Shown in pieces: positions 2,245 to 38,403 of a stretch of 42,148 nucleotides of DNA (within the stretch, counting starts at the first letter, position 1; each line of letters starts with the position of its first letter). This DNA is from a virus. The stretch covers positions 1 through 42,148 of the IMG/VR virus record IMGVR_UViG_3300045988_085437. One strand, given 5' to 3'. The position numbers and the translations under genes were made by a program. The notes beneath the pieces were generated by a model. That model saw only the letters and a list, made by a program, of their open reading frames with translations, made no database searches and had not been told where the DNA came from.

Positions 2245-2249
2245 CCGCC

Positions 2250-15700: not shown

Positions 15701-15757
15701 CAAGCTAGAGCGCAAGACGCCAGAGCTGGGAATGATCCCGGCTTTGGCGTCTTTTTT
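15697..15757 (+). terminator. Copy 1 of a conserved element: box ATAACAAGCTAGAGCG + 16-bp hairpin + U-tract
   Basis: Hairpin 15716-15751 (loop ATGA) followed by TTTTTTGTTTTT. A near-identical element lies at 31351. Confidence 0.65.
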
Positions 15758-15835
15758 GTTTTTCTGAGCAAGACGCCCGAGACCACGGACGCTTGAAATA
15801 CACGCCGCCAGACCAGGCGGGGAAAGAAGGAAGCA

Positions 15836-17851: not shown

Positions 17852-17860
17852 GCAATATGG

Positions 17861-17885
17861 GCCCCCGCAAGGGGGCCTATTTCCC
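17861..17885 (+). terminator. GNRA-looped hairpin after the capsid gene (probably a partial terminator)
   Basis: GGCCCCC-GCAA-GGGGGCC followed by TATTTCCC. Confidence 0.4.
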
Positions 17886-17910
17886 TAGTCATTCCCTGAA
17901 AGGTGAGCGC

Positions 17911-21167: not shown

Positions 21168-22904
21168 ATGAAGAAGTTTGACCCGACACCTCAGAAGGTG
21201 TCTGCAGAGTATCAGGCTGGGGTCCAGTTTAATCAGGGAATCCAACTGTATGACTGCGTGAATGTCAATGAGAACTTTTTCATCGGCAAGCAGTGGGAGG
21301 GAGTACATAGCAATGGCCTGCCGACGCCTGTTTTCAATTTCCTGAAACGTGTCGTTTTGTTTTCTGTGGCGAATGTGTCTACAGACAACCTAAAGCTCCA
21401 CGCAAAACCGCTGCCCTCCAACGGGAAGCTGACAGGGCAGGATGCGGAGATTTTGACAGACCTCTTGAATGACCAATTCCAGTCCATTTTCGAGTTCAAC
21501 AAAATGGGGGCCTGTATCCGCGAGTTTGCCAGGAACGCCGCGGTGGATGGGGACGGCTGTCTGTACACCTATTGGGACCCTGATGTAGAGACAGGGCAGC
21601 CAAGCAAGGGCGCAATCAAAACGGAAGTTTTGATGAACACACAGGTGCTGTTTGGAAATCCCAACAGCCGGGACGTTCAGAGTCAGCCCTATATCATGAT
21701 TGAACGCCGGATGCTGGTTCCTGAGGCCAAGAAGCGGGCAATCGCAAACGGCGTCAGTGAGGATGATGCGGACGGCATCACTGCTGACAGCAAGCAGAGC
21801 GGGGATAGCCGCATGGACGAGCTGGGCGGCAATAAAGTTACGGTCCTGCTGCGGCTGTGGCGGGATGACGAGAGCGGAACCATCCACGGCTATGAATGCA
21901 CACAGAATCAGGAGATCAAGCCCGAATGGGACCTTGGAATCAAGCTGTATCCCATCTCCTGGATGTCCTGGGACTTTGTACAGGACTGCTACCATGGGCA
22001 GGCCATGATTACAGGTCTCATTCCGAACCAGATTTTCGTAAACAAACTGTTTGCCATGTCCATGATCTCTCTGATGATGCTGGCCTACCCCAAGATCATC
22101 TTCGACAAGACGAAGGTCGCCAAGTGGAGCAACCGAGTGGGCGCGGCCATCGCCGTCAACGGCAGCGTGGAGAATGTGGCAAAGATTATCGACCCGGCTA
22201 CCATCTCTCCCCAGATTTCCCAGTTCATTGACCTTGCAATCTCCTACACGCAGCGGTTTTTGGGCGCTTCCGACGTGGCCCTTGGCGATACACGGCCCGA
22301 CAACACCTCCGCTATCATTGCCCTGCAGCGGGCGGCGGCGACTCCTATGGAGCTGACAAAGCAAACGCTGCTGCAGGCCATTGAAGACCAGGGCAGGATT
22401 TACATGGAGTTTATGGGCGAGTATTACGGGGACCGCTACGTGGAGATTCCTGTTGACCAGACAGCTCTAGGCGGCAACCGTGTGATGTTCACCATGCCGG
22501 GGGCTAATGGGAAGGTTTTGGCTCCGTTCGATTTTTCCAGCCTGAAGGACTACTACTTTACCGTGGACCTGGATGTGGGAGCATCTTCTTACTGGTCCGA
22601 AATCGCCTCTATGCAGACGCTGGACAATTTGCTGATGCAGGGCAAGATTTCCACAGTGGAGTATTTGAAGCGTCTGCCTGCCGGTCAGATCACAGACCGG
22701 GAGACGTTGATTGCGGTATTACAGGCAGACCAGCAGCGGCAGATGGCAATGGCGATGGGCGGCGCAGGCGGCAACTCCGGGAATGGGGGAGGCCCCGCGC
22801 CTGCCGGGCAGGAAAATCCACCGCTGCGGGGCGGCGCCGGATATGGGGCCTTGCAGCGGGTTATCAACCAGACGGGAGAAGTCCCGCAGGAAAGGGGGGC
22901 CTGA
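21168..22904 (+). CDS. Portal protein
   Basis: Supported by size (578 aa), the N-terminal NENFFIGKQWEGV...LPTPVFNFLKRVV portal-like motif and a Gly-rich C-terminal tail. Confidence 0.65.
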   Translation: MKKFDPTPQKVSAEYQAGVQFNQGIQLYDCVNVNENFFIGKQWEGVHSNGLPTPVFNFLKRVVLFSVANVSTDNLKLHAKPLPSNGKLTGQDAEILTDLLNDQFQSIFEFNKMGACIREFARNAAVDGDGCLYTYWDPDVETGQPSKGAIKTEVLMNTQVLFGNPNSRDVQSQPYIMIERRMLVPEAKKRAIANGVSEDDADGITADSKQSGDSRMDELGGNKVTVLLRLWRDDESGTIHGYECTQNQEIKPEWDLGIKLYPISWMSWDFVQDCYHGQAMITGLIPNQIFVNKLFAMSMISLMMLAYPKIIFDKTKVAKWSNRVGAAIAVNGSVENVAKIIDPATISPQISQFIDLAISYTQRFLGASDVALGDTRPDNTSAIIALQRAAATPMELTKQTLLQAIEDQGRIYMEFMGEYYGDRYVEIPVDQTALGGNRVMFTMPGANGKVLAPFDFSSLKDYYFTVDLDVGASSYWSEIASMQTLDNLLMQGKISTVEYLKRLPAGQITDRETLIAVLQADQQRQMAMAMGGAGGNSGNGGGPAPAGQENPPLRGGAGYGALQRVINQTGEVPQERGA

Positions 22905-22907
22905 TAC

Positions 22908-23222
22908 ATGGCTCTAGCGAGGTTTGAGAAGGACATGGCGATCATCTCCGCTCTGGACGATGAACCGAACGACGTGGGCGGCCTGACGGCTGCGGAGCTG
23001 AAAGCCAAATTTGACGAGGGCGGTCAGGCCATCAAACAGTTTTTGAATGAGACGCTGACACCGCAGATTGACTCCGAAAAGGCTGGCCGTGATGAATTGG
23101 AAGGGCTTGTCCTGGGGCAGATTCCGGATGGAACAATCACCGTTGAAAAGATGGCCCCATCGTTCTTTACGTCCATTCTGAACACTCAAATCCAAGTAAC
23201 CTACAACGGAGGTGGTAACTGA
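22908..23222 (+). CDS. Small tail/fibre-associated protein (104 aa)
   Basis: The LDDEPNDVGGLTAAELKAKFDEGGQAIKQFLNETL motif is common at the N-termini of Firmicute phage tail-fibre proteins. ATGA-type coupling to the fibre gene. Confidence 0.45.
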   Translation: MALARFEKDMAIISALDDEPNDVGGLTAAELKAKFDEGGQAIKQFLNETLTPQIDSEKAGRDELEGLVLGQIPDGTITVEKMAPSFFTSILNTQIQVTYNGGGN

Positions 23223-25648
23223 TGGCGCAGACACTTGGCAGCGTGGCGGTGGGGAGCATCGTCAAGATCGACGAGAACGGGAGCCCGGTAAACTACATCG
23301 TGGTGCATATCGGGAACCCGGATGTAAGACTGTATGGTAGTGCCTGTGACGGTGCGTGGTTGCTGCGGCAGGATATTGTGGAGAACGTCCAGTGGAACAG
23401 CACCAATGCAAACACACTTGTAGGCTCCACAATTATGTCTACGATGGCTGGGTATCTGGGAAGGTATGAAAGCCACATCCAGTCTGCCATCAAGACAGTG
23501 AAAATCCCATACCATCCAGGCAATGGAGGGCCTTTATGGGACATCAAAAGTGGAGAAAATGGTTTGGAGTGCAAGCTGTTTCCTCTTTGTGGATATGAGG
23601 TCGGCCTGTCTGGCATAAGTGGAGTTATGCCCATAGACGGCGCGAAGCTGGATTACTTCAAGAGTGGACTTGACACGGAAGCCAATAGCAAGCGGATTGC
23701 TAAACTGAATGGAGCCGCGGCTGCTTGGTGGCTTCGCTCTCCAGTTTCTACGAGCACAGACGGAAAGTTTTACGTCTTGCCCGATGGCAGCTTGGGCAGC
23801 ACCTCGGTAAACCCCTCTTATGGCGCCCTACCTGCCATGATTATGGACCCTACCATCCTGGTTTCGGATGATGGAACCGTTGGCGTTCCGGCGTCCCCCA
23901 CTGCCCTGACTGTGCCGATTCAGGTCATGCAGGGGCGGCAGATCACGGTGAGTTGGTCTGCCGTAGATGGAGTAAGCAGCTACATCCTGGAGCGCAAAGC
24001 GAACACGGACGCCGACTGGGTGCAAGTGTATTCCGGAGCGAACACGAGCTTTGAGGAAACGGTGGGCACCTGGACGAGCGTGCAGTACCGCGTCAAATCT
24101 CTCGCAAACGGGAAATATGGCGATTATACAACGAGCACATCTGTTTCCGTAGTCCCTCTTTCTGCCCTGGTGATTTCCGGGTCTGACGGCAGTTTGGGCA
24201 CTCTCACAAATGATGTACAGTATTCGGTGTCCTCCAGCGGAACTAGTACTTTGACGGTTACAGAAACCATCAACGGCGTCAACACTCGGACATACACGGC
24301 CACCAACGGAGCCGACAACAAGATTTCGGTGGTGGACTTGCCCACGGGAGCGGGCACCATCAAGATCACGGCTTCCACCAACCCCAGCAGCGGCGTGGTG
24401 AGCGTGACGCGGGAGTGGACGTACACCAAGGCGGCCATCACCTTCCCGGATGCCGGGAGCGTGGCGGACCTGACCCAACAAGGCAAGACCATCTGGGCCA
24501 AGACCATTGCGGAGGCGGTGAGAGCGCCCGGCATTTGGGGCGGAAACCTGGGGCTGGCGCTACAAAAGCTGGCCCGGAGTGTACTGTATAACCGGAGCCA
24601 GGCACCAAAGTATTCGGAGGTCACGGTCGATCTGGCAACGGCCAAGGAGGGAAACATCATCAGCCTGCCGGAGAATGGGCAAATGGTGGAGTTCTACGTC
24701 ACCAAGCACGATTACGAGAGCGGGCTGAATGGGGCTGGGCGGACGCTGGTGGTACGGAAAGATCTGTATATTGCACGTCCATGGGACACTGACGGAGTAA
24801 ATGCATATTCTACAAGTGATATCGATATATGGATGGAAAGCACCTACAAACCCATGCTCGATAGTTCTGTTCAGTCTGAAATTGGGACGACTAAAATTTA
24901 TTATACTCCCGGTAACGGAAATGATACAGTAACCACACTTGAAAGAGGAGTGTTCCAACTTTCCGCAACAGAAATGGGCGGGACAGGAGTAAATTTCAAT
25001 GTCGAAGGAACAGTGCTGCCTATTTCTGAAACATTGCAACAGGCATCAAATGGACCACAAATCATTTGGACAAGAACGCCAACGATTGGACGTACAAATA
25101 CGGCCATTTCTCTGAGCAGAAATCCAAATCCTTCTTTTGATAATACCTTTTGCACCGCTACACAGAAATGGTATTACCGCCCTGCCTTTACTCTTCCCTC
25201 TACCTTTGAGTCCACCTACTACGTCGGCAGTGACGGCACCGTCCACGACGAGCAGGAGTACGAGGAGGCGGGCACCCTCACGGACATTTCTGGCGGCGCT
25301 ATCCCCATAGTGAGCATCGAGACCGGGAGCTATGTCGGGACGGGCGCACTTGGTAATGCAAACCCATCATCGCTGACATTTTCTGCGCCTCCCGCCTTTT
25401 TGCTGATTTCAAATGGTGGCGCAAGCCACTTTATCCTAATGGATGTGGTCGCTTTGACAACTTCTTTTACTGCTAGAGCGTATTTGTATGTCGAAACAGA
25501 CGGCGCACTAAAAACTACTTCCACAGTTTACGCAAAAAGAGATGGTAACACAGTATCTTGGTATATAGACGAGGCAAAACCTTACGCACAATGTAACCAG
25601 CAAGGACTCGCATATACCTACTTAGCATTGTTGGGAGGTGCCGCATGA
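23222..25648 (+). CDS. Tail fibre / receptor-binding protein: two DUF6273-like modules plus an FN3 domain
   Basis: AAAWWLRSP...GALPAMIMD and IIWTRTPT...YYRPAFTLP motifs, plus FN3-like ITVSWSAVDGVSSYILERKANTDADWVQVYSG..VQYRVKS. Confidence 0.7.
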   Translation: MAQTLGSVAVGSIVKIDENGSPVNYIVVHIGNPDVRLYGSACDGAWLLRQDIVENVQWNSTNANTLVGSTIMSTMAGYLGRYESHIQSAIKTVKIPYHPGNGGPLWDIKSGENGLECKLFPLCGYEVGLSGISGVMPIDGAKLDYFKSGLDTEANSKRIAKLNGAAAAWWLRSPVSTSTDGKFYVLPDGSLGSTSVNPSYGALPAMIMDPTILVSDDGTVGVPASPTALTVPIQVMQGRQITVSWSAVDGVSSYILERKANTDADWVQVYSGANTSFEETVGTWTSVQYRVKSLANGKYGDYTTSTSVSVVPLSALVISGSDGSLGTLTNDVQYSVSSSGTSTLTVTETINGVNTRTYTATNGADNKISVVDLPTGAGTIKITASTNPSSGVVSVTREWTYTKAAITFPDAGSVADLTQQGKTIWAKTIAEAVRAPGIWGGNLGLALQKLARSVLYNRSQAPKYSEVTVDLATAKEGNIISLPENGQMVEFYVTKHDYESGLNGAGRTLVVRKDLYIARPWDTDGVNAYSTSDIDIWMESTYKPMLDSSVQSEIGTTKIYYTPGNGNDTVTTLERGVFQLSATEMGGTGVNFNVEGTVLPISETLQQASNGPQIIWTRTPTIGRTNTAISLSRNPNPSFDNTFCTATQKWYYRPAFTLPSTFESTYYVGSDGTVHDEQEYEEAGTLTDISGGAIPIVSIETGSYVGTGALGNANPSSLTFSAPPAFLLISNGGASHFILMDVVALTTSFTARAYLYVETDGALKTTSTVYAKRDGNTVSWYIDEAKPYAQCNQQGLAYTYLALLGGAA

Positions 25649-27106: not shown

Positions 27107-27322
27107 ATGGAAACACTGCAAAAACGCCTCGGAAACCTGCTGACAGTGAAGTCCATCGTCACCATCGTTTTGACGGCGGTGTTTGCCTACCTGACCTGCA
27201 CCGGCGGCGTGACGGCGGAGCAGTTCTTGACGGTGTTCACCGTGGTGATTGCCTTCTATTTCGGGACTCAGGCAGAGAAGAAAGCGCAGGCGGACAATGG
27301 CAACAGTACGGGAACTACTTGA
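27107..27322 (+). CDS. Holin (2 TM)
   Basis: 71 aa with two TM helices and a charged C-terminus. It overlaps the endolysin start. Confidence 0.7.
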   Translation: METLQKRLGNLLTVKSIVTIVLTAVFAYLTCTGGVTAEQFLTVFTVVIAFYFGTQAEKKAQADNGNSTGTT

Positions 27323-27914
27323 CATCGCCCGTGGAGAGCTGGGGTACAAAGAGACTCCAGCCAACTCCAACCGGACGAAATACGGCGCGTGGTACGGCCT
27401 GGACGGCCAGCCCTGGTGCGTGATGTTTGTGGAGTGGGTCTTTGCCCAGGCGGGCGTCAAGCTGCCCATTGAGACGGCCTCCTGCACAATCTTAATGAAC
27501 GCCGCAAAGTCCGCCGGGAACTGGGTAACATCCAACTACCAGCCCGGAGACGTAGTGATCTACGACTGGGGCGGGGACAAGCGCCCGGACCACTGCGGCA
27601 TCGTGGAGGCGGTTGGTGGCAGTTCCATCACGGCCATCGAGGGCAACACCGCCATTGGCAACGACAGCGACGGGGGAGAGGTCATGCGCCGGACCCGGAC
27701 TCTTGGGCAGATTTTAGGGGCTGTACGGCCCGCCTATGACAAGGAGGTCACTATGGACAATACACCGTCTCCCGCCCACAAGGAGGGCGTGGAATGGGCC
27801 ATTGCAAACGGCATCCTGACGGGCGACAGCGAAGGGGACCTAATGCTCTCCCAGCCTGTTACCCGGCAGCAGATGTGTACGATGCTGTACCGAATGTGGA
27901 AGCTGATGGAATAA
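27297..27914 (+). CDS. Endolysin: CHAP/NlpC-P60-type amidase plus an SLH-like wall-binding repeat
   Basis: Contains KYGAWYGLDGQPWCVMFVEWVF (catalytic Cys), PDHCGIVE (His) and a C-terminal EGVEWAIANGILTGDSEGDLMLSQPVTRQQMCTMLYRM. The ATG at 27297 was trimmed from track ORF 27249. Confidence 0.88.
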   Translation: MATVRELLDIARGELGYKETPANSNRTKYGAWYGLDGQPWCVMFVEWVFAQAGVKLPIETASCTILMNAAKSAGNWVTSNYQPGDVVIYDWGGDKRPDHCGIVEAVGGSSITAIEGNTAIGNDSDGGEVMRRTRTLGQILGAVRPAYDKEVTMDNTPSPAHKEGVEWAIANGILTGDSEGDLMLSQPVTRQQMCTMLYRMWKLME

Positions 27915-28245: not shown

Positions 28246-28346
28246 GTGAGAAAATTTAAGCATGGAGGACGTAAGGGACAAGGGCTGGTACACGTCGCCG
28301 CCCTCCTTGCGGCCTCCTGATTTCTTAACATAAGGACGTGTTTGAT

Positions 28347-28517
28347 TTGATTTTGAATGGTTCAGAACTGGTGGCCCGGCTGGTGGCCTGCGGCTTCACG
28401 GAATCCAGCTCGTGGGACATCTGCATGAAATATGCCACTGACGGAAATTACTCCGGCCTGGAAGGATACATCCACCAGCAGGAGCTTTTGTATGATGACC
28501 GAAAGCAATATGTTTGA
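28347..28517 (+). CDS. Possible small ORF (56 aa, TTG start, below the track cutoff)
   Basis: My own translation: (M)ILNGSELVARLVACGFTESSSWDICMKYATDGNYSGLEGYIHQQELLYDDRKQYV. AAGGA lies 9 nt upstream. Confidence 0.3.
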   Translation: MILNGSELVARLVACGFTESSSWDICMKYATDGNYSGLEGYIHQQELLYDDRKQYV

Positions 28518-28872
28518 ATTTTACAATCCGAACCCCTACGAGAAAAATGTGGGGGATTGTACCGTCCGGGCCATCTCGAAGGCGCTGGAGCAGGACTGGT
28601 ACAGGACATACCTTGGTCTCTGCATTGAGGGTGCTGTGAGAGGTGATATGCCAAGCGCAAACGCCACATGGGGGGCTTATCTCCGGCGGCATGGCTTTCA
28701 GCGTGACATGGCGCCCGAGGATATGACCGTGGCGGAGTTTGCGATGGGGCATCCAAACGGGACTTACATTCTGGCCCTGTCCGGCCATGTGGTATGCCTG
28801 CAGGATGGTGTGATCTACGATACATGGCACAGTGAACACGAAACTGTGCTGTACTACTGGCAGAAAGGATGA
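28492..28872 (+). CDS. Hypothetical Cys/His protein (papain-like peptidase fold candidate)
   Basis: GDCTVRAISKAL ... LSGHVVCLQDGVIYDTWHS gives a Cys...His spacing like C39/NlpC-type enzymes. ATG at 28492 follows CAGGAG. Confidence 0.4.
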   Translation: MMTESNMFEFYNPNPYEKNVGDCTVRAISKALEQDWYRTYLGLCIEGAVRGDMPSANATWGAYLRRHGFQRDMAPEDMTVAEFAMGHPNGTYILALSGHVVCLQDGVIYDTWHSEHETVLYYWQKG

Positions 28873-28878
28873 CGTGAG

Positions 28879-29286
28879 ATGCCGAACTATCCCTATTACT
28901 ATCAGCCGTACCAACCGTATCAGCCGCCTATGGCGGACCAGCTGACGCAGCTGCGGCAGTCCTATCAACCCATGCAGCAGCCGCAGCAAGCCCCGGCATC
29001 TCCGTCTATTGTGTGGGTGCAGAGTGAGATGGAGGCGGCAAATTATCTGGTGGCGCCTAACTCTGCCGTTACCTTGTGGGACAGTAACGCCCCAGTGGTC
29101 TATCTCAAACAGGCGGACGCGAGCGGGAAGCCGTCCATGAAGATATATGACCTCGTGGAACGCAATCAGCGGACTGCACAGGCCCCGCAGGCTCCGGCGG
29201 TAGAGTATGCGCCCCTGTCTCGTCTGGAGGCGTTGGAGGCCCGCCTGGATGCGCTGGCGGCAAAAGATAAGGAGGATGCAGAATGA
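28879..29286 (+). CDS. Hypothetical protein with a P/Y/Q-rich N-terminus
   Basis: Starts MPNYPYYYQPYQPYQPP..., followed by a globular core and a C-terminal coiled coil. Confidence 0.55.
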   Translation: MPNYPYYYQPYQPYQPPMADQLTQLRQSYQPMQQPQQAPASPSIVWVQSEMEAANYLVAPNSAVTLWDSNAPVVYLKQADASGKPSMKIYDLVERNQRTAQAPQAPAVEYAPLSRLEALEARLDALAAKDKEDAE

Positions 29287-29504
29287 ACCCGTTTTATCAG
29301 GCTATGGGCGGCAACAGACAGCCCAACATGATGCAGCAGTTTCAATCCTTCATGCAGCAGATGCGGGGCAAAGACCCCAACGCCATGATACAAGAGATGG
29401 TATCCTCTGGACGCATTTCCCAAGATCAGCTCAACCAAGTCCAGAATCAGGCCCAGCAGATGCAGGGCATGTTTGAGGGGATGCGGAGCATGTTCGGTAA
29501 ATAA
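29283..29504 (+). CDS. Hypothetical Q/M-rich small protein
   Basis: ATGA overlap. 73 aa of low complexity. Confidence 0.5.
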   Translation: MNPFYQAMGGNRQPNMMQQFQSFMQQMRGKDPNAMIQEMVSSGRISQDQLNQVQNQAQQMQGMFEGMRSMFGK

Positions 29505-29560
29505 CTTCGATCAAAATCCCGGCCGGGTTTTGAAAATAAATCTACAAAGGAGATAACACA

Positions 29561-30292
29561 ATGAGTCTTTCTTCTGACGGCGCTGTGATGACCATGCCCG
29601 TGACTCCTGCCTATCAGGGCGGAAACGGCGGTTTCGGCGGCTGGGGCGGCGATTGGGCCTCCTGGATCATCCTGTTCCTGATCTTCGGCATGTTCGGCTG
29701 GGGCGGCTATGGCGGCGGCTGGGGTGGTAACTCCGGCAATGGCCTGGGTTCTCCCTCTGGTCAGGGTTGGGCCACCAGGGCCGACATCAACGAGGGCTTC
29801 GCCCTGAACGGCCTCCAGAACGGCCAGACCTCCATCCGAGATGCCGTGAGCAACGGCTTCCACGGCGTGGATACCGCTGTGTGCAACCTGGGCTATCAGA
29901 CGCAGGCGGGCTTTAACGCCATCGGCGCCCAGCTGGCGCAGTGCTGCTGCGATACCCAGCGGAGCATTGATGGCGTCCGCTATGACATGGCTACCCAGGC
30001 CTGCGATACCCGCAACACCATCCAGAACAGCACGCGGGACATCATCGACAACGCCAACGCCAACAGCAGAGCGATCCTGGACTTCCTGACCCAGGACAAG
30101 ATCGCTACTCTGACGGCTGAAAACCAGAGCCTGAAGTTCCAGGCTTCCCAGGCGGCTCAGAACGCTTTCTTCACCGCTAATCAGGAGGCCCAGACCGCTG
30201 AACTGATCCGCCGAATCAATCCCATGCCTGTCCCGGCCTATCAGGTGCCCAATCCTTATGCCGGATGTGGGTGCAATCCCTGCGGCTGCTAA
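29561..30292 (+). CDS. Gly/Trp-rich membrane protein with a Cys-rich C-terminal tail
   Basis: Contains GGNGGFGGWGGDWASWIILFLIFGMFGWGGYGGGWGGN and ends PYAGCGCNPCGC. AAAGGAG RBS. Hairpins flank the gene. Confidence 0.6.
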   Translation: MSLSSDGAVMTMPVTPAYQGGNGGFGGWGGDWASWIILFLIFGMFGWGGYGGGWGGNSGNGLGSPSGQGWATRADINEGFALNGLQNGQTSIRDAVSNGFHGVDTAVCNLGYQTQAGFNAIGAQLAQCCCDTQRSIDGVRYDMATQACDTRNTIQNSTRDIIDNANANSRAILDFLTQDKIATLTAENQSLKFQASQAAQNAFFTANQEAQTAELIRRINPMPVPAYQVPNPYAGCGCNPCGC

Positions 30293-30356
30293 AACCCAAT
30301 ACATCAACTTGTAAGAAAGGCTTACATGTTCGGCCCCGTGCCGATTTTGAACCATG

Positions 30357-30388
30357 CGGCGGGGGCAATAGCCTCCGCCGACTTTTTT
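30357..30388 (+). terminator. Rho-independent terminator
   Basis: CGGCGG(g)GG..CC(t)CCGCCG followed by ACTTTTTT. Confidence 0.55.
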
Positions 30389-30404
30389 GAAAGGAATGAA
30401 GTTT

Positions 30405-30827
30405 ATGGCTGAATACAGCAACAGCGCAATCGTAACCGTTGCCGCTGGTCAGAACGTGCCTTTTACCGAGGAGGCCAACACAGGCAAGCCCTGCATTGTG
30501 CATCGAGAAGGCGCTGGGCTGGTGACTCTTCGCGGGCTCACGAACCAGTGCCGGGCAAAATTCAAAGTCTCCTTTGGAGCAAATATTGCTGTCCCTACTG
30601 GCGGGACCGTGGAGGCCATCACGGCAGCGATCTCCATCAATGGTGAGGCGCTGAACGCTTCCACCGCTACCGTCACCCCGGCTGCCGCAGAGGATTTCTT
30701 CAATATTTATGTTTCCGCTGTGGTGGATGTCCCCCGTGACTGCTGTGTCACCGTCGCCGCAAAGAACACCAGTACGCAGCCCATCCTCGTTGCCAACAGT
30801 AATTTTATTGTTGAGCGCATCGCGTGA
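30405..30827 (+). CDS. Small beta-rich protein resembling BclA-C / C1q-TNF-like jelly-roll domains
   Basis: A pattern of alternating beta-strands: AAGQNVPF....IVHREGAGLVTL...KFKVSFGANIAV...ISINGEAL..VTVAAKNTS..ILVANSNFIVERI. Recalled by resemblance only. Confidence 0.35.
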   Translation: MAEYSNSAIVTVAAGQNVPFTEEANTGKPCIVHREGAGLVTLRGLTNQCRAKFKVSFGANIAVPTGGTVEAITAAISINGEALNASTATVTPAAAEDFFNIYVSAVVDVPRDCCVTVAAKNTSTQPILVANSNFIVERIA

Positions 30828-30840
30828 AAGGAGAACCGAT

Positions 30841-31284
30841 ATGGAATATCTGTATGACCTGAAAGAAAAGCTCTGCAAGGAGCTGGAGGAATATGCCCAG
30901 AAAAGCAACATGAACGCCGGGGACCTGGAGATGGTCCACAAGCTGACGGATACCATCAAGAACGTGGACAAGATCATGATGCTGGAGGAGGGCGGTTACA
31001 GTCAGGCAGCCGACATGGACTCTCCTTCCAGCTATGCCAGAGGCTCCAGCTATGCCAACCGTGGCAAGCACTATGTCCGGGGCCACTACAGCCGGGACGG
31101 CGGCTACTCCCGTGAAGGGCGCGGCGGATACAGCCGCGACGGCTACTCCCGTGCCCGCGGTTATTCCCGCAGTGAGGCGAAGGACTCCATGATGGAGCAG
31201 CTGGGCGCTATGATGGAGGATGCATCCAATGACCGGGAGCGGGAAGCGATCCGGATGTGCATGGAGCATCTCAATCAGGAATAA
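30841..31284 (+). CDS. Hypothetical protein with (R/D)GGYSR(D/E)G repeats
   Basis: ATG at 30841 follows GAAAGGAG. Helical N- and C-terminal ends flank YSRDGGYSREGRGGYSRDGYSRARGYSRS. Confidence 0.55.
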   Translation: MEYLYDLKEKLCKELEEYAQKSNMNAGDLEMVHKLTDTIKNVDKIMMLEEGGYSQAADMDSPSSYARGSSYANRGKHYVRGHYSRDGGYSREGRGGYSRDGYSRARGYSRSEAKDSMMEQLGAMMEDASNDREREAIRMCMEHLNQE

Positions 31285-31296
31285 TTCCCACAAAAC

Positions 31297-31330
31297 AAGG
31301 GGGCCGCTTGCATAGCGGCCCCTTTTGTTG
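31297..31330 (+). terminator. Strong rho-independent terminator
   Basis: AAGGGGCCGC-7 nt-GCGGCCCCTT followed by TTGTTG. Confidence 0.75.
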
Positions 31331-31350
31331 TATAATTGTTGTACAACTTG

Positions 31351-31416
31351 ATAACAAGCTAGAGCGTTCAGCGCCAGAGTTCGGAGTGATCCGGGCTTTG
31401 GCGCTTATTTTTTTTT
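31351..31416 (+). terminator. Copy 2 of the conserved element: box ATAACAAGCTAGAGCG + 16-bp hairpin + U-tract
   Basis: Hairpin 31370-31405 (loop GTGA) followed by TATTTTTTTTT. It shows compensatory differences relative to copy 1. Confidence 0.65.
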
Positions 31417-31436
31417 GAAATTGAGGTGAAATTGAT

Positions 31437-32705
31437 ATGGCAGCTGCAGAGGAGTCTATCCGCGGGAAAACCAGACCGGATATGTCCAGAAACGAGGGAC
31501 TGGCTGGGCAGACGGTCACGAAGGGAGACTATGAATATACCTACGATGATAATGGGTATGCGAAAAAGGCCATCAATGTCAAAAACAGGCAGGAACGGGA
31601 ACAGGAGGGGTATGGTGGAGGCGGATATTCCGGAGGCGGAGACTCTTCCTATTATGACTCTCTCCAGCCCACGGACCTTTCTGGATACCTGAATGACATG
31701 TACAAAGCCTACACGGACGCACAGCTGGCGGCTCTGAAATCGGCATACGAACAGAATTTGGCAGGCCTGCAGGCGGACGCGGAGAAAATTCCCGGCATTT
31801 ACCAGGGCGCCCGGAATGAAGCGGCGTCTCAGAATGATATTGCCCGGATGTCCTTTAATGAGTACGCAAACGCACGAGGCTTGAACACCGGAACCAGCGG
31901 GCAGGCGGCTCTTGCAAACTCCGCTGTGCTGCAAAGCAACCTCACGGACATCTCCACAAAGGAGTCCGATGCCATTGCGGAAAACGCCCTGCAACAGCAG
32001 CAGCTGGCGATTGAATACCGCAACGCGGCAGTGCAGGCGCAGGCGGAAGGGAACTACCAGATGGCCCAGGCCCTGTACAATGAGTATGTACGGCAGGACA
32101 ACGCCGCCATGCAGACGGCACAGCTTGCCCAGGAGCAGGCCAACTGGGAAGCGCAGTTCAACGCTGGAAACAGCCAGTGGCAGCAGCAGTTTGACGCTTC
32201 CCAGCAGGAGTATCAGGACAGCCTTTCGGCACAGAACCGGGAATATGCCTATAATCTGGCGATGACGATGCTGGCGGCGGGCGTGATGCCGGACACCAAC
32301 ACTCTGAATGAGGCTGGGATTTCCGCAGCCGACGCGCTGAATATGCGGCTTGCTGCAATGTCTACTGGCGGTTCGGGCGGCGGGCGGGGAAGCTCTGGAA
32401 GAAGTTCTGATGTGGATGTGTCAAACGAAAATGAACAGGGAACGGTATCTTCTTCCGGCAACCTCCATAAAGCTGACCGGGATACAACCATCAAAAATAC
32501 CGTTGCTTCTGGGAAACTCGGCGGAGGCGGAATCTCTCCAAACGAATTTAACGCACTAGGGAAATCTTTGGCGGCGCAGCTGGCATCCGGTAATGAAAAT
32601 GCCGCTTTAGGAAATGTAAACAACCGATGGAACTCTCTTTCTACTTATCAAAAACAACAGCTGGCTGAGCTATTTGCAAGATATGATATTGCATTGTCTA
32701 ACTAA
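31437..32705 (+). CDS. 422-aa Q/N/A-rich protein (internal virion/ejection protein candidate)
   Basis: GAGGTGA RBS. Long helical Q-rich repeats and Gly-rich linkers. It directly precedes the giant gene. Confidence 0.5.
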   Translation: MAAAEESIRGKTRPDMSRNEGLAGQTVTKGDYEYTYDDNGYAKKAINVKNRQEREQEGYGGGGYSGGGDSSYYDSLQPTDLSGYLNDMYKAYTDAQLAALKSAYEQNLAGLQADAEKIPGIYQGARNEAASQNDIARMSFNEYANARGLNTGTSGQAALANSAVLQSNLTDISTKESDAIAENALQQQQLAIEYRNAAVQAQAEGNYQMAQALYNEYVRQDNAAMQTAQLAQEQANWEAQFNAGNSQWQQQFDASQQEYQDSLSAQNREYAYNLAMTMLAAGVMPDTNTLNEAGISAADALNMRLAAMSTGGSGGGRGSSGRSSDVDVSNENEQGTVSSSGNLHKADRDTTIKNTVASGKLGGGGISPNEFNALGKSLAAQLASGNENAALGNVNNRWNSLSTYQKQQLAELFARYDIALSN

Positions 32706-32717
32706 AGAGGTGAAACC

Positions 32718-35700
32718 ATGCCGACATTTAAAAGGATCAGCACAGGTGAGACACTGACGTATGACCCTGATCCGGTAAGAAGTCGTCCGAATGTTGAGGC
32801 GATTACGACCAAGCCGAAAACAAAGGCCGGAAAGAATACCATTACCGGCAAGATCAGCAGCTCGGCAAAATCTCGGCGGAAAGTTGCCGAAGAAAAGACG
32901 AAGCCGGATACGCTTCTAAATATCCTGATGCGAGACACTGGGCACATCAGCGAAGTGGTGGACAGCACCACCGGACAGGTGATCTCCACACCGGAGGCGT
33001 CCCGCGGTGGGAGTATGCTCAAAGGCGCTGCACAGGGAACGGCGGCGGGCTTTACGAGTACCGGAGGGACCTTCCTGGACCTGCTGCGTTCTTATGATAC
33101 TGCTGGCAGCTCCTACACCCGGCGGGCCAATCAGGAGGCTGAGAACGCAGCCCACTACCGGGAGATGTTGGAACGTGGGACGTTGGATGATGGAACACCC
33201 ATCACGGCGTCTATGCGGAAACAACTGGAGACCTTGGCGGCGCGTGCGGAGCAGCGGTCCGGCGTCTACCGCCAGGGAGCGGAGGCCCAGCACGCCCCCA
33301 TTGCACGGGCCACGCAGTCCGTGTATGATACGGCGGACCGTCTTGCGGCCCAGTCGGCACAGAATATCGCGGAGGCAAAGGAGGGGCTTGGAAGTGTCGG
33401 TCAGTTCGCGGTGGACGTGGGCGTGGCCGGGACGCAGTTGGCGGGCGACGCTCTTCTGGCGGCTCTCACTGGAGGGAGTGCGCTTGTTCCAATGGCTGTC
33501 CGGGGCTTTGGCTCCGGGACGCAGCAGGCACGGCAGGAGGGAGCGACGCTGGGGCAGCAGGTGGCCTATGGCGCGGGGAGCGCGGCTCTGAGTGTTGCAA
33601 CAGAGAAGATCGCCAACGTGGCCGCCCCGCTTCGACGGACCTTCGGTTCCGGTGTTCTGGACAATGCTATCGCAAAAGCAACTGGACGCCTGGGCCAGAG
33701 CGCAGCTGGGCAGACGGTCCTTTCTGCGTTGAGCGAAGGTGGAGAGGAAGTTGTGGAAGCGTTGGTCCAGCCGGTGCTGCAGCGGATCACCTATGATAAA
33801 ACTGCCCTGCAGCAATATCAGGACCCGGACTATCTGGCAGACACCATTTATCAAGGCCTGATTGGAGGCGCTTTGGGTGGTGCGCTTGGAGCTGCTGGAA
33901 GCATTGGCCGCAGAAGCGCCGAAAATGTCCAGCGTCGGGCCACAGATGCCACAGGAGCGGCGCAAACGGAAACTGCACCCGTTTCCACCACCCAGGCACA
34001 GGAGGCCGCAGAGGGCACTACAGGCTTTTTGGAGCCAACGCTTGTTAGCCGTGTACGTCAGTCTATTCCGCATATCCAAAACATGAATCCGGTTGCCGAG
34101 GTTACTGGGACAGAAATCCCCCGAAGTGGAAAACTGGTGGATCGGCTTTCCTCTTTTGTCAATGCGATTGGGAATAAGGTCAATCGGCCCGGCTTTGGTG
34201 ATGTTCTATTCTCCAGGGGGAGAATCAAGTCCAGCATGATCGGACATGGGACAGGCCCTTCCAAAATCGAGACATTTGCGGCCGTCCCGGATGTAATCCG
34301 AAACGGCCAGCAGATTGACTATCAACAGAACTGGAAAGGGCGCGGCTATGATACCTACACTTTCGCAGCGCCAATTACCTACCGGGGGCAGCCTACTTAC
34401 TTAGGTGTCATCGTCACGAAGGACAGCGCCAGCAACCGCTACTATCTTCACGAGGTAGTGGATGCAAATGGAGACGTCATCTTTAGAAATGACGAATCCC
34501 CCGCATCTACACCAAACGGAACTTCTGCCCTTTCGGGTGACCTCGATACCGTAGTAGACACGGGGGATGGTGCAGGAACAACACCGGGCACTGTCGACAC
34601 CGTGACAGACGGGCGGGCCTCCCGAGGGGTTCCTGCTTCTGATACTACTATAGCACCCGGCGCGGAAAATGTCAATTCGGACATTCTGGCGCAAATTCTG
34701 TTTGGGGATACCCGGCAGGAAACCGGAGACACACAGGCACCGCCAACCTATGACAACCTGGGCAGCGCCCGGCGGGGCTTCACCACCCCCGGCATGGAAG
34801 GGCAGGAGAGGACCAGCCGCCTTGCGGAGTCCATGCCGTATAATCAATATCAAGAAGCCGCCACCGGCCTTTCACGGGAGGACTATGCCAAGCTGTTCCG
34901 GTATGAAAGCCAAACAGAAGGGCGTTCTCTCAATCTGGCAGAAGAACTGGTGTACGCCGTTCGGGACGGCCAGCGGACCTTCCTGCGAGACATTGACGAG
35001 ACGGCTTTTCATGAGTTGGTGCAGTCCCTAGATGATGCGACGGCATGGAATGCGCCCCAGATGGATGCCGCCCGGATGATCCAGCAGGAGCTGCAAGGGA
35101 AGTCCGCAAATCTGGAGATCCCCTCTGAGGAATATACGGACTTCCTGCGGATCATGCGGGAGCATGAGACTGCCACTGGTCAGGGCGTTCAGGCAAACGC
35201 CAAGTGGAGCCGCCGGGACAACCAGAACGGCCAATCTTCGGAGCTGGAGGCGTGGGACAATCTGCAAAACTCCAATCTTTCCGAAGAGGAGAAGCGCAGC
35301 ACCTTCCAACGGATTGTGAAGTGGGATACGGAGATCGAGCAGGCCACAGAGCCGCAGCAGTTGAAGGACATTATCCTGAACGTTGCACAGCAGCGGGGCG
35401 TTTTGAATGGCTTAACTGGTCGGCAGAGCCGGATTATGACCGCGGTTGCAAACAGCAGCTTGGACTCCCTGACATTCGACCAGTTGAAGCAGTTTGCCTA
35501 TGCTTCCACTTCTGCGCTCAGCACCGACTCCACACCGGCCAACATGGGTCAGAAGATCAAGACTATCCAAATCCTGAACATGCTGTCCAACCCCAAAACG
35601 GCGGTGAAGAACATCACCGGAAACACGTCTTTCTACGGCCTGGACGCGCTTTCCATGAAGGGAGCGGCCCTGCTGGATATGGCGCTGTCCAAAGTAACAG

Positions 35701-37667
35701 GGACCCGCAGCGTGGCCTATGAGCGTTCCAATCTGGGGCAGGCAGCCAAGGCGATGCAAATGGCGATTGCAGAAATCACCATGGACGTAGACATGAGCGG
35801 TAATCAGAGCCGGTACGGCACCAGCAACCGCCGGACCTTCAAAGCCAGCGGAAACTTTTTGGACCGCGTGATGTCCATGCTGGAGCGGAACCAAGCGTAC
35901 CTTTTGAATGCCACAGACGAATTCTACAAGGGCCTTGCCCGCAGCAATGCGAGCCGTACCCAGGCGCTGGTCGACCAAGGGAAGATCAAGACTACTGACA
36001 AGGACTATGCACAGAACCAAGCTGACGCACTTGCACGATACCGGACGTTCCAGGATGACAGCAAACTTTCTCTTGCGATCCAGCAGGTACATGATGTACT
36101 GAATATGGTTGCTGGCATTGGTGACAGTGGACGGAGCATCCGCGGCCGTACAGTCCATGCCTTCGGAGCTGGTGACATCGTGGCGCCGTTTACTCGGGTA
36201 GCCGGAAATCTGGCATCTCGCGGTTTGGAGTATTCTCCCGCGAACGCTGTCAAGGGTATTGTGGAGATGGGTAAAACCGTGGCGCAGGCTGTCAGCGGTC
36301 AGAATGTGGACCCGGCTGCACAGGCCCGGGCCGTCTCTGACACTACCCGGGGCCTCACCGGAACCGCCATTGCTTACGGATTTATGCTTTTGGCCCAGTC
36401 GGGGCTTCTGTCTCAGGCAGGGGACGAGGATGATCCGGACGTGGCGGCGCTGAATTCCAGCGAGGGCATCACGGGAACCCAACTGAATATCTCCGCAACG
36501 GAACGGGCTTTGTCCGGTGGAAGCACGGAATGGCAGAGTGGAGACACCCTGATCGACCTGTCCTCCATCGAGCCGCTGAACCTGTTGATGAACCTGGGAA
36601 CGGAGATGGCAAAGAGTGAAGGGAACCCCATCGTTTCTTCTTTTAATGCTGTGCCGAAATCCTTTATGGATGCAACTGCGGAGCTTCCGGTGATGCAGTT
36701 CATTGGGAATGCGGCAACGGACATCATCAAATATGGACAGGACCCACAGGAAGTATTACTGCAGGAGGGGGCAAACACGGTAGCTTCTTCCCTGATACCA
36801 AACATTCTGCGGTCTACGGCCCGTGGGCTGGATGACCGACCCCGCAATACCTATTCCGGGGATACGCTCGGAGAGCAGGTTGTGGACAGCGTGAAGAACA
36901 GCATCCCGGGTTTGCGAGAAACCCTGCCGGGGTCTGTCAACCCACTGGGGGAGGAAAAGCTGTATCAGGGGAGCACTGCGGACCGCCTGCTGAACGCGCT
37001 GCTGAACCCGGTGGGAGTCAATACCTACGACCAGAGCGAAGTGTCTCAAAACATGGAAGCGCTGCGCGAGCGGACGGGGGAGACCTCCTTCTATCCTTCT
37101 AAGAGCGCCCCATCGGAGCTCTCGTACACAAAAGATGGCAATACCTATAGCAAGTCCTTGACCTACGAGGAGCGGCAGGACTATCTCCGGGATCGCGGCG
37201 CCGTCGCACTGACTACGCTGTCCTCCATGATGGGCAGCAGCGCATACAAGAGGGCGAATGATACTACCAAGACGGAGCTTTTGGACCTCTGTAATGACTA
37301 CGCCAGCCAACGGGCAAAGAAAACGATTCTGGGAGCCGACAGTGTTCCGGCATGGGTAAACAACGCAGAGACAGCGCAGAACGATCTTGGAATATCTCCA
37401 GCGGAATACTTGGCCCTCTATCATCAGTACGGCGCCGAGATCATGTCTGGGACGGCTTATGAGAAAACGAAGCAGGCAGTGGCTGCCGGTCTGACTGTCG
37501 AACAGTATGCGGATATGAAGAACGGAATTGATGCGGACAAGAATGGGTACAAATCCAAAAGTGAGGCCAGGGCTTATCTGGATAGCCACAATTTCACCCA
37601 AGAGCAAAAGGCGGACCTCTGGACAATCATCAACAAGAGTTGGGAGAAAAATAACCCCTACGCATAA
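32718..37667 (+). CDS. 1649-aa polyvalent-type / ejection (or tape-measure-like) protein with an embedded PBECR/LPD-like domain
   Basis: N-terminal Gly/Ala-rich hydrophobic segments. Residues about 470-595 read SMIGHGTGPSKIETFAAVPDVIRNGQQIDYQQNWKGRGYDTYTFAAPITYRGQPTYLGVIVTKDSASNRYYLHEVVD, matching domains recalled from phage/ICE polyvalent proteins. Confidence 0.55.
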   Translation: MPTFKRISTGETLTYDPDPVRSRPNVEAITTKPKTKAGKNTITGKISSSAKSRRKVAEEKTKPDTLLNILMRDTGHISEVVDSTTGQVISTPEASRGGSMLKGAAQGTAAGFTSTGGTFLDLLRSYDTAGSSYTRRANQEAENAAHYREMLERGTLDDGTPITASMRKQLETLAARAEQRSGVYRQGAEAQHAPIARATQSVYDTADRLAAQSAQNIAEAKEGLGSVGQFAVDVGVAGTQLAGDALLAALTGGSALVPMAVRGFGSGTQQARQEGATLGQQVAYGAGSAALSVATEKIANVAAPLRRTFGSGVLDNAIAKATGRLGQSAAGQTVLSALSEGGEEVVEALVQPVLQRITYDKTALQQYQDPDYLADTIYQGLIGGALGGALGAAGSIGRRSAENVQRRATDATGAAQTETAPVSTTQAQEAAEGTTGFLEPTLVSRVRQSIPHIQNMNPVAEVTGTEIPRSGKLVDRLSSFVNAIGNKVNRPGFGDVLFSRGRIKSSMIGHGTGPSKIETFAAVPDVIRNGQQIDYQQNWKGRGYDTYTFAAPITYRGQPTYLGVIVTKDSASNRYYLHEVVDANGDVIFRNDESPASTPNGTSALSGDLDTVVDTGDGAGTTPGTVDTVTDGRASRGVPASDTTIAPGAENVNSDILAQILFGDTRQETGDTQAPPTYDNLGSARRGFTTPGMEGQERTSRLAESMPYNQYQEAATGLSREDYAKLFRYESQTEGRSLNLAEELVYAVRDGQRTFLRDIDETAFHELVQSLDDATAWNAPQMDAARMIQQELQGKSANLEIPSEEYTDFLRIMREHETATGQGVQANAKWSRRDNQNGQSSELEAWDNLQNSNLSEEEKRSTFQRIVKWDTEIEQATEPQQLKDIILNVAQQRGVLNGLTGRQSRIMTAVANSSLDSLTFDQLKQFAYASTSALSTDSTPANMGQKIKTIQILNMLSNPKTAVKNITGNTSFYGLDALSMKGAALLDMALSKVTGTRSVAYERSNLGQAAKAMQMAIAEITMDVDMSGNQSRYGTSNRRTFKASGNFLDRVMSMLERNQAYLLNATDEFYKGLARSNASRTQALVDQGKIKTTDKDYAQNQADALARYRTFQDDSKLSLAIQQVHDVLNMVAGIGDSGRSIRGRTVHAFGAGDIVAPFTRVAGNLASRGLEYSPANAVKGIVEMGKTVAQAVSGQNVDPAAQARAVSDTTRGLTGTAIAYGFMLLAQSGLLSQAGDEDDPDVAALNSSEGITGTQLNISATERALSGGSTEWQSGDTLIDLSSIEPLNLLMNLGTEMAKSEGNPIVSSFNAVPKSFMDATAELPVMQFIGNAATDIIKYGQDPQEVLLQEGANTVASSLIPNILRSTARGLDDRPRNTYSGDTLGEQVVDSVKNSIPGLRETLPGSVNPLGEEKLYQGSTADRLLNALLNPVGVNTYDQSEVSQNMEALRERTGETSFYPSKSAPSELSYTKDGNTYSKSLTYEERQDYLRDRGAVALTTLSSMMGSSAYKRANDTTKTELLDLCNDYASQRAKKTILGADSVPAWVNNAETAQNDLGISPAEYLALYHQYGAEIMSGTAYEKTKQAVAAGLTVEQYADMKNGIDADKNGYKSKSEARAYLDSHNFTQEQKADLWTIINKSWEKNNPYA

Positions 37668-37670
37668 GAG

Positions 37671-37698
37671 AAGCCCCGCCAGACGGCGGGGCCTTTTC
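37671..37698. terminator. Bidirectional terminator between the convergent late and early operons
   Basis: GCCCCGCC-AGAC-GGCGGGGC with CTTTTCT downstream and AGAGAA upstream. Confidence 0.75.
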
Positions 37699-38403
37699 TC
37701 ACTGTTTGGAGATGATCGTTTTCAGAACCGGAACAACGCTTTCGTAGTATCGGAAGGACGGGACTTCCTTTCCGGGGCAGTTCTTGGCAACGTCATTGAC
37801 CCATGTCCCGTACTGCTTCGTTTTCAGGTGGTTCCGGTTGGCGAGCATCCCGACCTTGTTTGCGGAGATGCCCAGTTTTTCGCCGATCTCCTGTGCTGAG
37901 TACGTCTTTTCCCCGATATAGGGCAGGGGGAGCAGGTATTCCCCAGTCAGCTCCTTGGTAGCGTGGGCCTGGAGAACCTGTCTGTAAGTACCGTCATACT
38001 CCTTCGCCAGACGCTCCAAAAGCTGGGCCTTGCGGACGCGGATGCTCTCCATCTGGTAGTCGGTCATGGGCTTAGCTGTATAGTGGCCCGTCTTGCGGAT
38101 ACTAGGCAGCACCTCCGAAGTCACCCAGCGGCGGAACTTCTTGGCTCCCGGTAGCTTACTGGACAGAACCAGGGAATATAGGCCGGATTCGTTGATGATA
38201 GGCACACTCTGCTTTCCTCCGGGGGTGACCATTTCAGTCACCCCTTTATCTTCTTCATCCACATGGTCACGGATGGCCCTCTGTGGGTTCTGGTACCCCA
38301 ACGCCGCTGCCACGTCCTTTCCCACCAGCCACGGTTCCCCATTGATCTCCACAGTACGGACCTTTCCGAATTCGGGGTTGTTGAAAACTTTCAGTTCGTT
38401 CAT
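37699..38403 (-). CDS. Bro-N domain antirepressor-like protein
   Basis: LKVFNNPEFGKVRTVEINGEPWLVGKDVAAALGYQNPQRAIRDHVDEEDK...ESGLYSLVLSSKLPGAKKFRRWVTSEVLPSIRKTG is a canonical Bro-N. Confidence 0.85.
   Translation of the reverse strand: MNELKVFNNPEFGKVRTVEINGEPWLVGKDVAAALGYQNPQRAIRDHVDEEDKGVTEMVTPGGKQSVPIINESGLYSLVLSSKLPGAKKFRRWVTSEVLPSIRKTGHYTAKPMTDYQMESIRVRKAQLLERLAKEYDGTYRQVLQAHATKELTGEYLLPLPYIGEKTYSAQEIGEKLGISANKVGMLANRNHLKTKQYGTWVNDVAKNCPGKEVPSFRYYESVVPVLKTIISKQ

Follow-up and report, generated by a model that had tools for sequence, protein, structure and literature searches.

Results

The two-gene block and its flanking signals

The window analyzed here is the whole 42,148-nt stretch of viral DNA in IMG/VR record IMGVR_UViG_3300045988_085437, and is a complete temperate phage genome (~42 kb) of Oscillospiraceae. 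Our subject is a plus-strand block of two adjacent genes (31437-37667), which encode a 422-aa protein, called the partner below, and a 1649-aa protein, called the giant protein (Table 1). The giant protein is basically a large conserved chassis with two sites for small exchangeable cassettes, and the pair probably acts as a set of internal virion proteins that are ejected into the host. A sequence-only reading of the same DNA had delimited the block and proposed this role. Both open reading frames (ORFs) are present at the positions that it gave, each behind a strong Shine-Dalgarno sequence, and their homologs form 1226 (partner) and 1531 (giant protein) clusters at 90% identity, many of them 95-98% identical and from human-gut assemblies; the ORFs are therefore genuine and not chance occurrences. 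The block had also been placed after the lysis genes. The endolysin gene does lie upstream, but five conserved ORFs and a RAGATH-31 RNA intervene, so that the two are not direct neighbors.

The box-and-hairpin element that was noted before the block is a 66-nt leader with exactly two copies in the window (15697-15762 and 31351-31416), which are 80% identical and have compensatory changes in the stem. Each copy has a 16-18 bp hairpin and a U-run (folding free energies of -29 and -37 kcal/mol, z of -5 and -7; for the copy before the partner gene, -29.2 and -5.0), and the copy at 15697 precedes the scaffold/capsid operon. In nine close relatives, an exact copy of the box, ATAACAAGCTAGAGCG, precedes the partner gene. 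No Rfam family matches the element, and no late regulator or antiterminator was found among the small ORFs. The two-copy arrangement looks like the antitermination-controlled leaders of late genes, and, because the hairpin that stands before the genes is itself terminator-like, expression would need read-through or antitermination. A sequence at 31308-31336 (TTGCAT-17-TATAAT) could be a promoter; transcripts from it would start just 5' of the box and then meet the hairpin and U-run at once. The leader copy at 15697 has no promoter at the equivalent spacing. At the other end of the block, a hairpin that folds about equally well on both strands lies between the convergent stops of the giant gene and its neighbor, and is likely the two-way terminator that had been proposed there. 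It is plausible from these signals that the block forms its own transcription unit.

Table 1. Features of the two-gene block and of the rest of the window (coordinates in nt of the window; aa, residues of the respective protein).
Feature	Position	Strand	Description and basis
Terminator-like hairpin	31297-31325	+	closes upstream gene set (upstream stop 31284); 12-bp stem, 8 GC pairs, T-rich tail
Leader	31351-31416	+	box ATAACAAGCTAGAGCG, then 16-bp hairpin, U-run; 66-nt two-copy repeat
Partner gene	31437-32705	+	422 aa; ATG; ribosome-binding site (RBS) GAGGTG at 31423-31428
Partner core	31674-32351	+	aa ~80-305; Ala/Gln/Asn-rich, helical; alignment, invariant core
Partner C-terminal tail	~32484-32702	+	~70 aa; alternative versions in alignment
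Giant gene	32718-37667	+	1649 aa; ATG; RBS AGAGGTGA; starts 12 nt past partner stop
Variable basic head	32718-33002	+	aa 1-95; K+R 17%, net charge +6
N-core	33003-34022	+	aa ~96-435; Gly/Ala-rich, helical; composition, hydropathy
LPD3 cassette	34026-34496	+	aa ~437-593; alpha/beta globular; Pfam PF18798, AlphaFold2
Linker	34497-34754	+	aa 594-679; low-complexity Thr/Gly/Asp/Pro; motif SDILAQILFG at aa 654-663
C-module	34755-37367	+	aa ~680-1550 (best conserved ~770-1550); predicted all-helical, uncharacterized
Conserved hydrophobic helix	36348-36410	+	aa 1211-1231, RGLTGTAIAYGFMLLAQSGLL, then acidic DDEDD cluster; hydropathy profile
C-terminal helical domain	37095-37652	+	aa ~1460-1645; AlphaFold2; sole confidently modeled part of C-terminal half
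EF-hand-like loop	37530-37565	+	aa 1605-1616, DADKNGYKSKSE; DADGNGSVSQAE in relatives; read from sequence
GC-rich hairpin	37673-37692	both	between convergent stops 37667 and 37699; -24.3 (+) and -25.5 (-) kcal/mol, z -5.7 and -4.7
ERF recombinase	2667-3470	-	
S24/HTH repressor	8238-9050		
Integrase	9965-11053		
Small terminase (TerS)	14318-14812	+	
Capsid protein	16796-17851	+	
Large terminase (TerL)	17857-19314	+	
g612	19318-21156		612-aa virion protein
Portal	21168-22904	+	P22-type; P22_portal, E 6e-12
DUF6273 protein	23222-25648		808 aa
Endolysin	27249-27914		
RAGATH-31 RNA	28264-28317	+	full-length; Rfam RF03101, 80 bits vs gathering score 71.8, E 3e-15
Five conserved genes	28432-31284	+	function unassigned; between lysis genes and two-gene block
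BRO-N/antirepressor-like gene	37699-38403	-	BRO-N match E 9e-30; convergent to giant gene

Architecture of the giant protein

The anatomy in Table 1 was defined from pairwise maps against 120 homologs together with targeted alignments, and AlphaFold2 (AF2) was run on aa 1-680 and aa 650-1649 with 37-sequence alignments. At the N-terminus, the basic head is swapped for unrelated sequence in relatives. The N-core that follows contains the Gly/Ala-rich segments that had been described near the N-terminus (Gly plus Ala 28-37% across aa 101-400), and its Kyte-Doolittle (KD) hydropathy peaks at aa 246. This region carries the motif SEGGEEVVEALVQP (aa 339-352), in which the glutamates of EGxEE are invariant even in relatives that are 20-25% identical overall. 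The N-core is predicted to be helical, with low AF2 confidence (predicted local distance difference test, pLDDT) except for a helical hairpin at aa 131-190.

The cassette at the first insertion site is the sole well-modeled globular domain of the N-terminal half, a confident alpha/beta domain (aa 441-593, pLDDT ~70-88). It matches the Pfam family LPD3 (PF18798, aa 486-576) with 27.1 bits in the whole protein, where the cut-off is 27, and with 30.3 bits (E 5e-7) when the segment is searched by itself; at least one embedded globular domain had been expected, and Pfam and AF2 agree on this one. In BFVD, the top matches of the cassette bear the name LPD3 and belong to 'Podoviridae sp.'. A comparison of the fold with the PDB gave no significant match, the best being a weak NTF2/cystatin-like one (E ~1) that we take as a lead only. 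The linker beyond it carries the motif SDILAQILFG, which marks a second cassette insertion site, empty in the giant protein of the window.

The C-module is the largest part of the chassis. An exhaustive phmmer search of 1.84 billion representatives returned 3804 clusters (50% identity) at E<=1e-3, 813 of them at E<=1e-30, and in nearly all full-length matches the module is the C-terminal part, in proteins of up to 4450 aa. Searches of Pfam, PHROGs, NCBIfam and PDB sequences gave no match to it. The hydrophobic helix within it is the top peak of the family-averaged hydropathy (KD19 = 1.48), with a pattern kept in relatives that are 27-50% identical, and is a candidate membrane-insertion or core helix. 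Near the end of the protein, the C-terminal helical domain is modeled with pLDDT 73-90 at about aa 1470-1600 (residues ~820-950 of the modeled segment) and 52-74 beyond; neither this domain nor the EF-hand-like loop has a Pfam match. AF2 is confident only for LPD3, a single helical hairpin and the ~180 aa at the C-terminal end, and the long helical regions that had been read from the sequence are thus reproduced as a largely helical prediction of low confidence. Foldseek searches of the PDB gave nothing at E<0.8, and no fold-based assignment of the chassis is made. Profile searches of PDB sequences with the partner, C-module, LPD3 and the second cassette (cassette X, below) found nothing, nor did searches of NCBIfam and PHROGs with the giant protein.

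Cassette exchange among relatives

All four possible combinations of the two cassettes occur among 119 close homologs: LPD3 without cassette X in 96, X without LPD3 in 12, neither in nine, and both in two. Cassette X is an unnamed segment of ~205 aa at the second site, with copies of SDxLxQILFG on both flanks and no match in Pfam, PHROGs or the PDB. At the first site, the flanking DNA of the window is identical to that of a cassette-less relative up to both junctions, and therefore the exchange was recent and precise. The shuffling of domain content among relatives that the sequence-only reading had anticipated is thus seen directly.

A wider set of domains is found across the relatives with the same chassis. 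A scan of 38 proteins that share the C-module found PBECR3 in nine, LPD3 in eight, MuF_C in five, LPD23 and Zeta toxin in two each, and PBECR5, ddrB-ParB and ART-PolyVal in one each. One relative whose C-module is 77% identical to that of the window (P0241) carries both PBECR3 and LPD3, and a distant 2195-aa giant protein (L033) has PBECR3 at aa 862-977. The PBECR, ART-PolyVal, Zeta toxin, ddrB-ParB, MuF_C and LPD domains are the vocabulary of polyvalent proteins in Iyer et al. 2017 (PMC5512222). The window copy has one recognized domain plus uncharacterized modules, while its chassis relatives combine PBECR3 with LPD3, or bear Zeta toxin, ART, ddrB-ParB or MuF_C. Two or more domains with disparate activities are thus a trait of the family, and only arguably one of this copy. 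Because of the LPD3 match, the polyvalent domains on the chassis of relatives, and the shuffling of cassettes among near-identical relatives, assignment of the giant protein to the phage-type polyvalent class, as had been suggested, is well supported by sequence comparison at the level of the family.

Two kinds of candidate were set aside in this survey. A search for cassette X as a stand-alone protein returned four short proteins, of which the two that were checked are unconvincing, and no such claim is made: one (P0392) is a fragment of a giant gene that had been called as several ORFs, and the other (P0390) lies antisense to a PBECR3 gene and overlaps it. An in-frame portal::giant fusion (L019, 3859-9255; a 1798-aa ORF with cassette X and the C-module) was discarded as evidence of head association; it has 66 portal residues, lies in an 11.5-kb degraded element, and is probably a deletion remnant.

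The pattern of exchange also bears on whether the pair could be virion-associated but purely mechanical, i.e., a pilot, plug or conduit set, or an external or tail-lumen part of a short tail, with the cassettes as adaptor or binding modules. Chassis accounts for ~85% of the giant protein, with a conservation that far exceeds that of the cassettes; no enzymatic function is predicted for LPD3, and the nine cassette-free relatives are presumably viable. A helical and poorly modeled chain with a conserved hydrophobic helix is likewise reminiscent of ejection or tape-measure-like proteins. However, the PBECR RNases, Zeta toxin kinase and ADP-ribosyltransferase of relatives would be useful only inside a cell, and fast turnover of cassettes between identical flanks is typical of conflict-driven effectors. 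We regard a purely mechanical role as unlikely.

The partner protein

The partner has a short conserved motif at the N-terminus, then a Gly/Ser spacer, the core, a second Gly/Ser spacer, and a swappable C-terminal tail. The core contains the invariant stretch EYANxRGLNTGTSGQAALA, and the spacers on its two sides vary in length. The protein had been described as Q-rich, which is only moderately so: glutamine is concentrated in aa 181-270 (22 of 90 residues) but amounts to 9.0% overall, and Ala, Gly and Asn are equally enriched. It has a weak match to PHROG 13399 (function unassigned), and none in Pfam, NCBIfam or PDB sequences. The invariant core also gave a weak remote match to gp18 of Bacillus phage Page (hhalign 78-79%, E 2e-5), which is a lead only.

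In most of ~40 loci, a partner homolog (340-960 aa) stops 2-25 nt short of the giant gene, with extremes of -4 and 100 nt, and the adjacency holds even where the C-module is only 25-33% identical. The type of partner tail and the type of giant head switch jointly, as one contiguous mosaic block, which may reflect an interaction of the two protein ends or mere adjacency in the DNA.

Separately, in a group of distant loci (L033-L042; e.g., L033 6500-6800), the C-terminus of the partner (…DGSVWRKSPNGKVYVTKDG…) and the N-terminus of the giant protein (…DGSLWKKEADGSITVTKNG…) carry one and the same short beta-hairpin-like motif, which may be a docking or targeting signal.

Synteny and core-gene status

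Gene order was compared in a portal-anchored set of 42 IMG/VR loci with >=9 kb downstream of the portal. The partner is present in all 42 and the giant gene in 39; in two of the remaining three, the fetched flank ends before the point where a giant gene would begin, and the third (L124) has no giant match, which is unexplained. From the portal to the pair, the downstream distance is 3.4-9 kb in 42 of 42 relatives. Because they are present across the portal-anchored loci, the two genes are core and not moron-like, and by this comparison the partner is an obligate companion of the giant protein. Most sublineages have g612 first, followed by the portal, three to five small genes, the partner, the giant gene and then a collagen-like or tail-fiber protein, with no lysis genes between; a lysis cassette between the portal region and the pair is found only in the sublineage of the window, where the giant gene is the last of its operon.

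Placement past the lysis genes and behind a terminator, with a leader of its own and a possible sigma-70-like promoter, would also suit a non-virion cytoplasmic module for anti-defense, superinfection exclusion or host takeover, expressed late or in lysogeny from its own promoter. The block adjoins the antirepressor/early region, and the domains found in relatives are of conflict type. Accessory morons, however, would not be expected to show a partner in every portal-anchored locus, and most sublineages place the pair between portal-proximal genes and the tail fiber in one tightly packed operon. The leader is common to the capsid operon, and the large size and conservation of the chassis are atypical of cytoplasmic anti-defense genes. 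This makes a cytoplasmic module distinctly unlikely.

Type of virion

TerS, TerL, the portal and the capsid protein are all encoded in one plus-strand late region. The nearest isolates by portal are the Bacillus megaterium phages Page, Pony, Palmer and kin (30% identity to the Page portal), and g612 has a homolog in gp15 of Page, a 'virion structural protein' (E 1e-52). Page is a podophage by transmission electron microscopy (PMC3990757). Searches of Pfam and PHROGs with every late protein found no tail tube, sheath, chaperone pair, distal tail protein, Tal or tape-measure family. Since the portal is of P22 type, the portal and g612 match a podophage, and the gene set of a long tail is missing, the virion is most likely podovirus-like, the condition under which the sequence-only reading had proposed its role for the pair. 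The relatives in BFVD are labeled 'Podoviridae sp.'.

That reading had itself named one alternative, in which the giant protein would be a plain tape measure in a virion with a long tail. Its Gly/Ala-rich segments, hydrophobic helix, predicted helicity and size would all fit, the nearest isolates of the capsid protein are siphophages, and BFVD gives weak, non-significant matches (E 0.06-1.2) to tape-measure proteins and to minor tail proteins. Yet the capsid protein is all that the window has in common with the siphophage TP21-L, none of whose tail genes is present, whereas the portal and g612 point to a podophage. The tail genes that should accompany a tape measure are missing from the late region, no gene follows the giant gene in its operon, and the gene upstream encodes a Gln/Ala-rich protein of 340-960 aa in place of a G/GT chaperone. 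Moreover, near-identical phages differ in this protein by cassettes of 157-205 aa, and the family extends to 4450 aa. With neither a tail module nor a match to a Pfam tape-measure family, this alternative is unsupported and, in our view, extremely improbable.

Other features of the window

Contigs of relatives are mostly 36-45 kb, and syntenic prophages are found in Oscillospiraceae genomes, namely Oscillibacter sp. MSJ-31, Faecousia, Oscillibacter metagenome-assembled genomes and Pusillibacter faecalis. Upstream of the block, the RAGATH-31 RNA occupies the intergenic gap that separates an 83-aa HTH-like gene from the first gene past the lysis genes. Three of the five conserved genes that follow have recognizable traits: the product of 29561-30292 is Gly-rich, with a hydrophobic stretch and a Cys-rich C-terminal end (PHROG 16490); that of 30387-30827 (146 aa) has a weak BclA_C-like match; and a third has GYSR repeats (ORF listed as 30709-31284, start taken as 30835).

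In the early region, a minus-strand gene (4511-5200) encodes a pentapeptide-repeat and DUF5758 protein with ~16-20 tandem 15-nt units (repeats at 4835-5179), which may be a DNA mimic or anti-defense protein. Five tandem 11-nt units (TTGCTTTCCGG-like) at 1982-2047 lie within a DUF6291 gene (1621-2358, minus strand) beside the ERF gene, and may represent replication-origin iterons. A minus-strand gene at 3921-4571, in the early region and outside the virion genes, codes for a 3D-domain (MltA/RlpA-like) protein; together with the endolysin, this protein accounts for the only cell-wall-related domains in the genome.

Discussion

Comparison with known systems

Iyer, Burroughs, Anand, de Souza and Aravind (2017, J Bacteriol) predict that phage-type polyvalent proteins are packaged in the capsid (PMC5512222). 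The giant protein resembles the proteins that they describe in being a giant, arguably multidomain protein of a portal-terminase phage, encoded among virion genes, with an LPD signature domain (LPD3) and mosaic orthologs. It differs in that most of its length is chassis (the N-core plus the ~800-900 aa C-module), which lies outside the published or Pfam polyvalent domains, and in that the window copy has a single recognized domain and an obligate upstream partner gene.

The nearest isolate counterparts of the LPD3 domain of the window are in a 3782-aa protein ('PLxRFG domain-containing / structural protein') of F116-like temperate Pseudomonas podophages (Hollowayvirus; e.g., Baskent_P6 XPB66950.1, Epa33), whose LPD3 is 27-28% identical by tblastn. 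That protein is also encoded at the distal end of a structural operon and next to lysis genes, although there the giant gene stands before the lysis genes and not after them, and the host is Gram-negative. A second precedent is gp47 of the Stx podophage phi24B (2811 aa; LPD5, LPD1, LPD38, MuF-C), which is present in virions by proteomics, invisible in the reconstruction, and a proposed ejection protein (bioRxiv 10.64898/2026.04.10.717836). Like the giant protein of the window, whose phage is probably short-tailed, it is a polyvalent giant of a temperate short-tailed phage; by description its domain set is different, and the window protein is without a peptidase domain. The polyvalent protein of phage PTXU04 is needed for efficient infection.

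The ejection proteins of T7 (gp14/15/16) and P22 (gp7/20/16) provide a positional analogy. They too are largely helical and encoded at the distal end of the morphogenesis operon, with a combined size of ~1300-2260 aa compared to 2071 aa for the window pair, and in P22 a convergent immunity/antirepressor region follows the ejection genes, as in the window. In contrast to them, the pair has no lytic transglycosylase domain, and exchangeable cassettes are absent in T7 and P22. A Foldseek match to T7 gp15 (7k5c) is non-significant (E 8.8). In Page, a 417-aa gp18 and a 1679-aa hypothetical gp20 with a very Lys-rich N-terminus end the structural operon (L149, 17622-24825); here a 'lytic tail fiber protein' gene lies between the two, and Page is annotated without an integrase, whereas the window phage has one.

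Ejection as the favored explanation

Taken together, synteny, core-gene status and analogy make the best available explanation of the pair that its members are ejected internal proteins, which would form a DNA conduit and deliver effectors; on balance, we think this reasonably probable. The virion role would be in line with the use of the same leader by the capsid operon, with a position parallel to that of the T7 and P22 ejection genes, and with the phi24B precedent.

Several results weigh against this explanation. In the sublineage of the window, the block lies past the lysis genes and behind two terminator-like hairpins, an unusual site for virion genes. The C-module has no tblastn match in 50,697 GenBank phage records. 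Profiles of the partner, N-core and C-module gave hhalign probabilities of <=2.1% against T7 gp13-16 and P22 gp7/20/16/14; the F116-like giant protein has no homology outside LPD3 (0.2% against the C-module), and none is detectable between Page gp20 and the giant protein of the window. Homology to all of these was rejected for want of detectable profile similarity. The chassis models are of low confidence (mean pLDDT 41 for aa 650-1649 and 46 for aa 1-680), which makes fold comparison uninformative, and the hydrophobic helix, with KD 1.48, is borderline for a membrane span. Neither a peptidoglycan hydrolase nor the MuF N-domain, portal fusion or (zincin-like) processing peptidase of other polyvalent proteins was found in the 38 relatives. 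Finally, LPD3 is without known activity and is outside the LPDs flagged as probably enzymatic by Iyer et al. (PMC5512222), so that the effector-domain claim applies to the relatives and not to this copy.

Under the ejection explanation, the block would be the conserved two-gene module of a temperate, podovirus-like lineage of Oscillospiraceae phages. Its chassis consists of the basic head, the EGxEE N-core and the ~800-900 aa helical C-module with the hydrophobic helix, and two insertion sites between N-core and C-module hold the exchangeable cassettes, with LPD3 in the first and the second empty in the window. Both proteins would be made late, from the leader common to the capsid operon, and, to judge from synteny and analogy, would be incorporated into the procapsid and exit via the portal and short tail at infection. 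The chassis and partner would then aid passage of the DNA across the envelope, perhaps as a conduit, and the cassettes would act within the new host in the first minutes of infection, LPD3 possibly with some activity of its own.

More tentatively, the N-core, C-module and partner might together constitute an undescribed and very widespread apparatus by which short-tailed phages of Oscillospiraceae and related Clostridia eject their DNA and deliver effectors. Such a carrier would be modular, and injected effectors such as LPD3, PBECR RNases, Zeta toxin and ART would be swapped at its two docking sites, which are bounded by motifs such as SDxLxQILFG. As a whole, this wider proposal is doubtful.

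Significance

Polyvalent proteins were reportedly predicted in 2017 to be injected multi-effector proteins; how they are carried, and which of their parts are carrier and which are cargo, are largely untested questions. The published concept is extended here by the clear split of a widespread, uncharacterized chassis and partner from plug-in cassettes at two defined sites: the family separates a large invariant carrier, with its obligate partner, from small cassettes that come and go. Relatives with no cassette, LPD3, X or both form a natural isogenic series that can be used to test cassette function and the ejection role of the chassis. Although thousands of metagenome clusters contain the chassis, it is missing from Pfam, PHROGs, NCBIfam and GenBank phage records, and so represents an annotation blind spot for abundant temperate phages of the human gut; it would also make a useful hallmark gene for this podophage lineage.

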